Source: Escherichia coli (GTDB lineage: Bacteria > Pseudomonadota > Gammaproteobacteria > Enterobacterales > Enterobacteriaceae). Taken from it: a DNA stretch of 47,404 nt. The stretch lies in assembly GCF_003334335.1 (NCBI RefSeq), contig NZ_QOWQ01000035.1; one strand, 5' to 3'. Below, piece by piece: positions 17,393 through 17,668 of this stretch. The notes beneath the pieces are model-generated. The model was not told where the DNA came from. It was given only the letters and a program-made list of their open reading frames with translations, and did no database searches. Position 1 is the stretch's first letter, and each line of letters opens with the position of its first letter. The position numbers were made by a program, and so were the translations under genes.

Positions 17393-17668
17393 GCCGGATA
17401 AGGCGCTCGCGCCGCATCCGGCAACGGTGCCAGATGCCTGATGCGACGCTTGCGCGTCTTATCAGGCCTACAAATTCCCGCACCCTCCGTAGGCCGGATA
17501 AGGCGTTTACGCCGCATCCGGCAACGGTGCCGACTGCCTGATGCGACGCTTGCGCGTCTTATCAGGCCTACAAATTCCCGCACCCTCCGTAGGCCGGATA
17601 AGGCGTTTACGCCGCATCCGGCAACAGTGCCGACTGCCTGATGCGACGCTCGCGCGTCTTATCAGGCC
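17393..17668. repeat. BIME cluster: three tandem 100-bp units, each with two REP palindromes in opposite orientation
   Basis: Unit gccggataaggcg...ccgcatccggc / gcctgatgcgacgc...gtcttatcaggc repeats with exactly 100-bp period at 17393, 17493, 17593. Confidence 0.9.

Follow-up and report, generated by a model that had tools for sequence, protein, structure and literature searches.

Within the 47,404-nucleotide stretch of Escherichia coli DNA that we analysed (hereafter the window), the co-oriented genes yjdM and yjdN are separated by a tandem repeat array that is entirely extragenic: yjdM stops at 17374 and yjdN starts at 17732 (Table 1). The yjdM TGA codon is followed by 14 nt before the GTAA of unit 1, and by 18 nt before the first paired base. 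Tandem Repeats Finder revealed 17389–17668 to be a single tandem array (period 100, 2.8 copies, 95% matches, score 502), and ungapped repeat finding gave start-to-start spacings of 100 and 100 exactly. A preliminary description of this DNA, made from the letters alone, had placed a BIME array with an exact 100-bp period between yjdM and yjdN and described it as REP pairs of opposite orientation; location, type and period all proved correct. The start it gave (17393) is the first paired base of hairpin 1, and the unit itself starts 4 nt earlier, at GTAA.

Table 1 Features of the yjdM-yjdN locus and other features of the window (positions are those of the window).
Feature	Position	Strand	Description
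IS1414 (IS256-like) end	1-77		First 77 nt of the window; joined inside melB
sRNA STnc630	11561-11726	-	Rfam match 182 bits; expected
Promoter-like site upstream of yjdM	16943-16971	+	CCGACA, 17-nt spacer, TATAAT; 10/12 consensus matches
yjdM (phnA)	17039-17374	+	Zinc-ribbon protein, 111 aa; ORF; RefSeq annotation in matching records
Unit 1	17389-17488	+	Equals MG1655 unit 1 (naRNA1); Rfam naRNA4 match 17392-17468, 95 bits
Unit 1, layout	17389-17488		GTAA (degenerate GTAG) 17389-17392; Y 17393-17422; S linker 17423-17435; Z2 17436-17467; CTAC 17468-17471; l/'U' linker 17472-17488
Unit 2	17489-17588	+	Equals MG1655 units 2 and 4 (naRNA2/naRNA4 sequence); equals array consensus
Unit 2, layout	17489-17588		GTAG 17489-17492; Y 17493-17522; S linker 17523-17535; Z2 17536-17567; CTAC 17568-17571; linker 17572-17588
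Unit 3	17589-17668	+	Equals MG1655 unit 6 (naRNA6); terminal, truncated; Rfam naRNA4 match 17592-17668, 106.7 bits
Unit 3, layout	17589-17668		GTAG; Y 17593-17622; S linker with G38A; Z2 17636-17667 with loop change T63C
yjdN leader	17669-17731	+	Unique, 63 nt; GAGG ribosome-binding site a few nt upstream of ATG
yjdN (phnB)	17732-18175	+	VOC-family protein, 147 aa; ORF; RefSeq annotation in matching records
Single BIME pair, phnD-phnE	20144-20224	-	Y/Z2; RF02564 match 69 bits
phnE	20180-21030		Two overlapping frames, 20180-20812 and 20662-21030
SECIS_2 of fdhF	44519-44573	+	Selenocysteine insertion element; Rfam match 87 bits; expected
BIME array downstream of yjcO	47040-47304		Tandem; period 113, 2.3 copies
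IS421 (IS4-like) end	47329-47404		Last 76 nt of the window

Each full unit pairs a Y palindromic unit with an inverted Z2 palindromic unit downstream; a 13-nt linker separates the two, and a 17-nt linker closes the unit. The unit opens with GTAG (GTAA in unit 1), Y is a 30-nt imperfect palindrome, and Z2 is a 32-nt palindrome in the opposite orientation, followed by CTAC; the 17-nt linker between units (l, or 'U') reads AAATTCCCGCACCCTCC. The last unit is without the final 20 nt, CTAC and the 17-nt l linker being missing. Units 1 and 2 differ at 7 of 100 positions and units 2 and 3 at 2 of 80, bearing out the earlier remark that the units differ by only a few substitutions. An array of this length and identity cannot arise by chance.

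We then considered folding. Every single hairpin in the array has a predicted energy of about -21 kcal/mol, stem mismatches included, and the array as a whole folds with z = -7.9 relative to shuffled sequence. The whole-array minimum-energy fold, in which distant units pair, was discounted as a thermodynamic artefact of the complementarity between Y and Z2; the local hairpins, which are taken as co-transcriptional, agree with the Rfam structure. A comparison of 16 distinct unit sequences, drawn from 12 strains, showed 13 variable positions, all of them in loops, linkers or GTAG; the 48 stem positions were invariant (Fisher p = 1e-4). The invariant stems agree with selection on the hairpins, or with their homogenisation, as far as can be read from sequence comparison.

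The array is REP325, the E. coli BIME-2 between yjdM and yjdN. It is a named and experimentally studied element (REP325/naRNA4) and therefore already known, an identity that the preliminary description did not recognise. The Rfam model RF02564 (naRNA4, nucleoid-associated noncoding RNA 4, also CssrE), which was built on the Y-l-Z2 repeat of REP325 (PMC4550694), matches the plus strand three times, at 95, 111 and 106.7 bits against a gathering score of 59.5, and the units align to the model over its full length. In unit 2 (17492–17568, 111 bits) every base equals the model consensus; the minus strand of the array scores 53–55 bits, under the gathering score. A single Y/Z2 pair between phnD and phnE also exceeds the threshold (Table 1), and RF02564 therefore detects BIME-2 pairs generally, not only REP325.

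In K-12, REP325 was described as six Y-l-Z2 repeats with identical 'U' linkers, transcribed from the yjdM side into naRNA1–6, of which naRNA2 and naRNA4 have the same sequence (Qian et al. 2015, PMC4550694). Decomposition of the yjdM-yjdN interval of NC_000913.3 (MG1655) gave six units with unit 2 equal to unit 4, as in the published naRNA pattern, and the three units of the window equal MG1655 units 1, 2 (= 4) and 6 at 100% identity. With yjdM and yjdN as flanks and units matching those of REP325, the two alleles have in common the locus, the flanking genes, the 14-nt spacer after yjdM and the unit architecture. They differ in length, the window holding three units (six hairpins, 280 nt) and MG1655 six (twelve hairpins, 580 nt); MG1655 units 3–5 (300 bp) are missing from the window, the sole other difference at the locus, which reflects either biology or assembly collapse.

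The assignment to BIME-2, a family whose members combine Y and Z2 units across a short linker and are repeated in tandem a strain-dependent number of times (PMC3333891), follows from the same anatomy: Y and Z2 alternate in inverted orientation, the linkers are short (S type, 13 nt, with 17 nt between units), there is no L linker with an IHF site, the tandem copies are strain-variable and the array is extragenic. We found no difference in kind from the BIME-2 family of Gilson and Bachellier (PMC3333891), in which the REP325 of K-12, with 12 palindromic units, is among the longest arrays. REP palindromes in inverted pairs are common to BIME-2 and to BIME-1/RIP/RIB elements. BIME-1 combines Y and Z1 units with a long L linker that carries an IHF site (PMC3333891), whereas the second palindrome here is Z2, not Z1, the linker is 13 nt long in place of the L motif, the element is repeated in tandem and no IHF consensus is present, and we rejected an IHF-binding, single-copy BIME-1/RIP on these grounds. 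The IHF consensus WATCAANNNNTTR has no match in 17375–17731, even with one mismatch allowed. The IHF binding that had been ascribed to the array therefore belongs to BIME-1 and does not carry over to a BIME-2 element.

Sequence divergence from MG1655 outside the REP arrays amounts to 12 substitutions in 47 kb (5643, 6682, 9907, 10812, 14599, 17118, 20733, 25014, 27983, 33429, 46104 and 46700). Over window positions 1–25000 the best complete genomes score as about 7 differences, equal to MG1655 there, and the source appears, on these sequence comparisons, to be a K-12-like lineage absent from the complete genomes searched. LAU-OXA and four similar genomes gave the top scores over 25 kb and were considered as closest relatives; we rejected them because their extra score came from a piece of IS1414, their IS lies 54–62 bp off the window junction, and they do not share the private substitutions. 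phnE, with two overlapping frames and no indel relative to MG1655, is a frameshifted pseudogene of the K-12 type, the predicted consequence being a cryptic phosphonate transporter like that of K-12. Two further Rfam matches in the window, to an sRNA and to the selenocysteine insertion element of fdhF, were expected (Table 1).

The setting of the array is that of an element inside a transcription unit. The promoter-like site upstream of yjdM is the probable source, judging by its consensus matches, of transcription through the array, and a scan revealed no promoter-like site between the array and yjdN, the 17669–17731 leader included. Together with the lack of an intrinsic terminator (below), these observations make the array part of a yjdM-yjdN transcript. 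A scan of 17375–17731 for a hairpin followed by a T-run likewise found no terminator-like site. The 3' neighbours of the array hairpins are AACGG or CTACAAA; no hairpin is followed by a T-run, and there is therefore no intrinsic terminator. A conventional terminator was rejected accordingly, as 17375–17731 has no GC-rich hairpin directly followed by a T-run. REP sequences at most 15 nt from a stop codon are said, in a statement available through a secondary citation, to regulate translation.

To obtain copy number at this locus, we joined the two 1-kb flanks into a synthetic query of 2000 nt and searched 5,426 complete genomes with it; subtracting 2000 from the matched span then yields the length of the array. 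A query containing the array itself was dropped for its ambiguous matches, which arose because BLAST pieces overlap within the repeat and longer alleles are split. Two systematic samples yielded 110 usable records. A single unit was present in 65 of these (59%) and two units in 12, O157:H7 included; three units (about 1%) and four units were each found once; and five, six and seven units were found in 10, 15 and 3 records, respectively, 5–7 units making up 25% of the 110. In the remaining 3 records the interval was interrupted by IS1; one of them, PigCaeca_2, has its IS1 upstream of yjdM together with a five-unit array, and it is tallied under IS1 rather than under five units. The long arrays belong to genomes with K-12-close flanks: where the flanks are at least 99.8% identical to those of the window, 5–7 units are usual and three units occur in about 2%.

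Three-unit arrays are found in at least 24 complete-genome records, among them wild isolates whose flanks diverge more (D2, PS2Canimalfeces12). Their unit content is not uniform, comprising 1-2-6 (the window, D2 and PS2Canimalfeces12), 1-5-6 (UMNK88) and a distinct set (MIN9), and the internal units missing from five-unit alleles differ between strains. Among laboratory K-12 derivatives, MC1061 (NZ_CP195014.1) has two units, the second a chimera of the 5' part of unit 2/4 and the 3' part of unit 6; OV2 (NZ_CP195020.1) also has two, and a single-nucleotide insertion in its unit 1 resembles a consensus error of long-read assembly. Such varied unit content, together with a chimera, is the pattern expected of unequal recombination or slippage between units, as read from the alleles themselves. 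The comparison of copy number across E. coli that had been proposed for the locus thus returns a range of 1–7 units and fits amplification and contraction by recombination between units. The suggestion of recent amplification fares less evenly: the copy-number variation fits it, but the allele in the window is three units shorter than that of the K-12 reference.

Whether the source genome truly has three units is a question in its own right, and a collapse of near-identical internal units during assembly, the genome holding more than three (five to seven), is a serious possibility to which we give slightly less than even weight. The window begins with an IS1414 end joined inside melB and terminates with an IS421 end, neither junction being found in K-12, and the matching IS overhangs suggest, by our reading, a whole short-read de Bruijn contig with k = 77. 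All k-mers of the window array up to k = 107 also occur in the six-unit MG1655 array, so that 1-2-6 is a valid walk in the graph of a six-unit array and the shortest that retains an internal unit. The same 1-2-6 allele appears in four K-12-named assemblies (EMG2, MG1655-pvir and two GM4792 records); in the reference, as in most K-12 assemblies, there are six units. In EMG2 (NZ_CP099588.1), MG1655-pvir (NZ_CP169294.1) and GM4792 (NZ_CP011342.2) the BIME array between yjcO and gltP is also short, at 4.3, 2.3 and 1.3 copies against 5.3 in the reference; the corresponding intergenic lengths are 530, 304 and 191 nt, where the reference has 641 nt. That two independent arrays are both short in nominal K-12 strains finds a simpler explanation in collapse than in biology, and three units are found in only about 2% of genomes with flanks at least 99.8% identical to the window, for which 5–7 are usual. 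On the other side, three-unit alleles with other unit content in complete genomes (1-5-6 in UMNK88, and MIN9) indicate that three-unit alleles do exist; the complete-genome records with three units number at least 24 and include wild isolates with divergent flanks; and unequal crossover between units 2 and 5 or units 3 and 6 also yields 1-2-6, the commonest three-unit deletion product. The worry about a collapsed array voiced at the outset was in any case well founded, given the contig ends, the k-mer walk and the shrunken second arrays of K-12-named assemblies.

The window holds its own copy of that second array, downstream of yjcO, with 2.3 copies where MG1655 has 5.3; among wild isolates with complete genomes, the 2.3-copy form is a common one. 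The linker of this array contains AATCAGGCTATTG, which departs from the IHF consensus at a single position, and for this reason the yjcO array, not REP325, might be an IHF-related BIME.

As to function, it is highly probable that this three-unit BIME-2 cluster acts within the yjdM-yjdN transcription unit as a stabiliser and attenuator by way of its hairpins. Transcription from the yjdM promoter would pass through the array, and each palindromic unit would form a hairpin of about -21 kcal/mol as it is transcribed. Together these hairpins would block 3'-to-5' decay and so protect the upstream yjdM mRNA, while also serving as a series of leaky transcription stops without U-tracts that would limit read-through into yjdN; in the full-length array these stops would be partly Rho-dependent. 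The near-identical 100-bp units would recombine unequally, or slip during replication, and unit number would change in this way. Like other operon REP elements with stabiliser or attenuator roles, the array sits between co-oriented genes, in the 3' UTR of the upstream gene, and forms hairpins without a U-tract; those elements mostly have one or two hairpins, whereas the dual role has been shown specifically for REP325.

The main support comes from experiments on the K-12 allele (Harris et al. 2026, bioRxiv 10.64898/2026.03.23.713779). Deletion of REP325 in K-12 moved the yjdM/yjdN mRNA ratio from about 35 to about 1, with yjdN up 8–10-fold and yjdM down, and on plasmids with yjdN, yjdM mRNA was more than 160-fold higher with the array than without it. 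A ladder of transcripts ended inside the array, the main species stopping after about four hairpins, and bicyclomycin raised read-through from 23% to 39% for the full 12-hairpin array only, fragments of two or four hairpins being unaffected. The authors concluded that REP325 stabilises the upstream mRNA and is a partly Rho-dependent attenuator. These functional data concern the 12-hairpin K-12 allele, mostly plasmid-borne, and endogenous yjdM and yjdN transcripts were barely detected by Northern blot (bioRxiv 10.64898/2026.03.23.713779). We infer that the three-unit, six-hairpin allele acts likewise, with attenuation that is probably weaker and less Rho-dependent; since Rho dependence was seen only in the full array, six hairpins may attenuate differently or more weakly. 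This main functional source is a preprint, and it contradicts the earlier peer-reviewed model of nucleoid condensation by HU and naRNA4 (PMC4550694).

The array might instead serve mainly as a strong, transcription-independent site for DNA gyrase that absorbs or sets supercoiling between the yjdM and phn units, which we regard as somewhat unlikely. Gyrase cleavage in vivo is significantly enriched at BIME-2 elements, Y is preferred over Z2, and the signal rises after rifampicin (PMC6379681); the array is a BIME-2 with three Y units. Cleavage is confined, however, to some of the BIME-2 elements, with sucC-sucB and tldD-yhdP as the named loci (PMC6379681), and those supplementary files of that study that were searched contain no entry for yjdM, yjdN, phnA or REP325. 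A gyrase site would, moreover, be compatible with a role at the RNA level.

That the array is essentially a selfish or neutral repeat of the REPIN type also seems unlikely, although it has the features of a transposase substrate. REPs with a 5' GTAG are substrates of TnpA-REP in vitro (PMC3333891), which upholds the earlier suggestion that such arrays can be targets of REP-associated transposases: the 5' GTAG and stem mismatch that binding and cleavage by TnpA-REP require (PMC3333891) are present in two of the three Y units (units 2 and 3), unit 1 having GTAA, and on the minus strand GTAG is present at the Z2 of units 1 and 2 and absent at the terminal Z2. TnpA-REP catalyses strand exchange between BIMEs in vitro (PMC3333891), REP325 has been predicted to be a RAYT-associated REPIN (bioRxiv 10.1101/2024.07.17.603846), and copy number varies strongly between strains, most of which have a single unit. 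Against a purely selfish nature, deletion of REP325 alters yjdM and yjdN expression and growth in K-12, REP325 is stable on plasmids, and the stems are invariant where loops and linkers vary, a pattern that homogenisation between units could also give. Judged by the 44 genes annotated in the equivalent K-12 region, the window contains no RAYT gene, and the array no adjacent cognate one (REPtron); a RAYT acts in trans from elsewhere, however, so its absence from the neighbourhood leaves the array a possible substrate.

A role as an element of chromosome architecture, in which naRNAs bind HU, bridge cruciform-forming REPs and condense the nucleoid, is very improbable. The single unit at the locus in 59% of sampled E. 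coli genomes is hard to reconcile with an essential architectural role of the array. This model rests on the co-purification of REP325 RNAs with HU and the nucleoid (Qian et al. 2015, PMC4550694), an enlarged nucleoid on REP325 deletion that was restored by plasmid-borne naRNA4, and REP-REP contacts in 3C that depended on HU and REP325 (PMC4550694). The naRNA4 sequence is present in the window as unit 2, and HU-naRNA4 binding has been re-measured with a Kd of about 32 nM (bioRxiv 10.64898/2026.03.23.713779). The same preprint, which shares the author S. Adhya with the 2015 paper, reports that nucleoid volume was unchanged on deletion or overexpression of REP325, that HU, cruciform DNA and naRNA4 formed no stable ternary complex, and that Hi-C gave no long-range REP-REP contacts.

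For annotation, the interval should be labelled REP325 (BIME-2, naRNA genes) and open reading frames crossing the array should be disregarded. Spurious reading frames, which the preliminary description foresaw, do occur: ORFs of 56–154 aa cross the array, and in strain 2023CK-01341 PGAP placed a frameshifted 'hypothetical protein' pseudogene inside it. Strain variation in the copy number of tandem BIME-2 elements has already been described in general terms (PMC3333891); new here are an approximate picture of how unit number is distributed across E. coli and a caution that tandem BIME arrays are not reliable in some assemblies. Such arrays appear to be under-counted or collapsed in some 'complete' assemblies, and short-read contigs are unsafe for copy number.

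The practical value of the finding is limited but real. It is quite doubtful that the unit number of REP325 is a heritable 'dial' setting the yjdM:yjdN expression ratio, with the two-peaked distribution (a single unit in most lineages, five to seven in the K-12-like clade) reflecting lineage-specific selection rather than neutral slippage; if this were true, the 'model REP' with its 12 hairpins would lie at an atypical extreme, and alleles of three units would be rare intermediates. REP325 is used as the model REP in its 12-hairpin K-12 form, whereas about 59% of sampled E. coli have two hairpins and several K-12-labelled assemblies show three or two REP325 units. Conclusions that depend on array length, such as the partial Rho dependence seen with the full array only, may not transfer to other strains.
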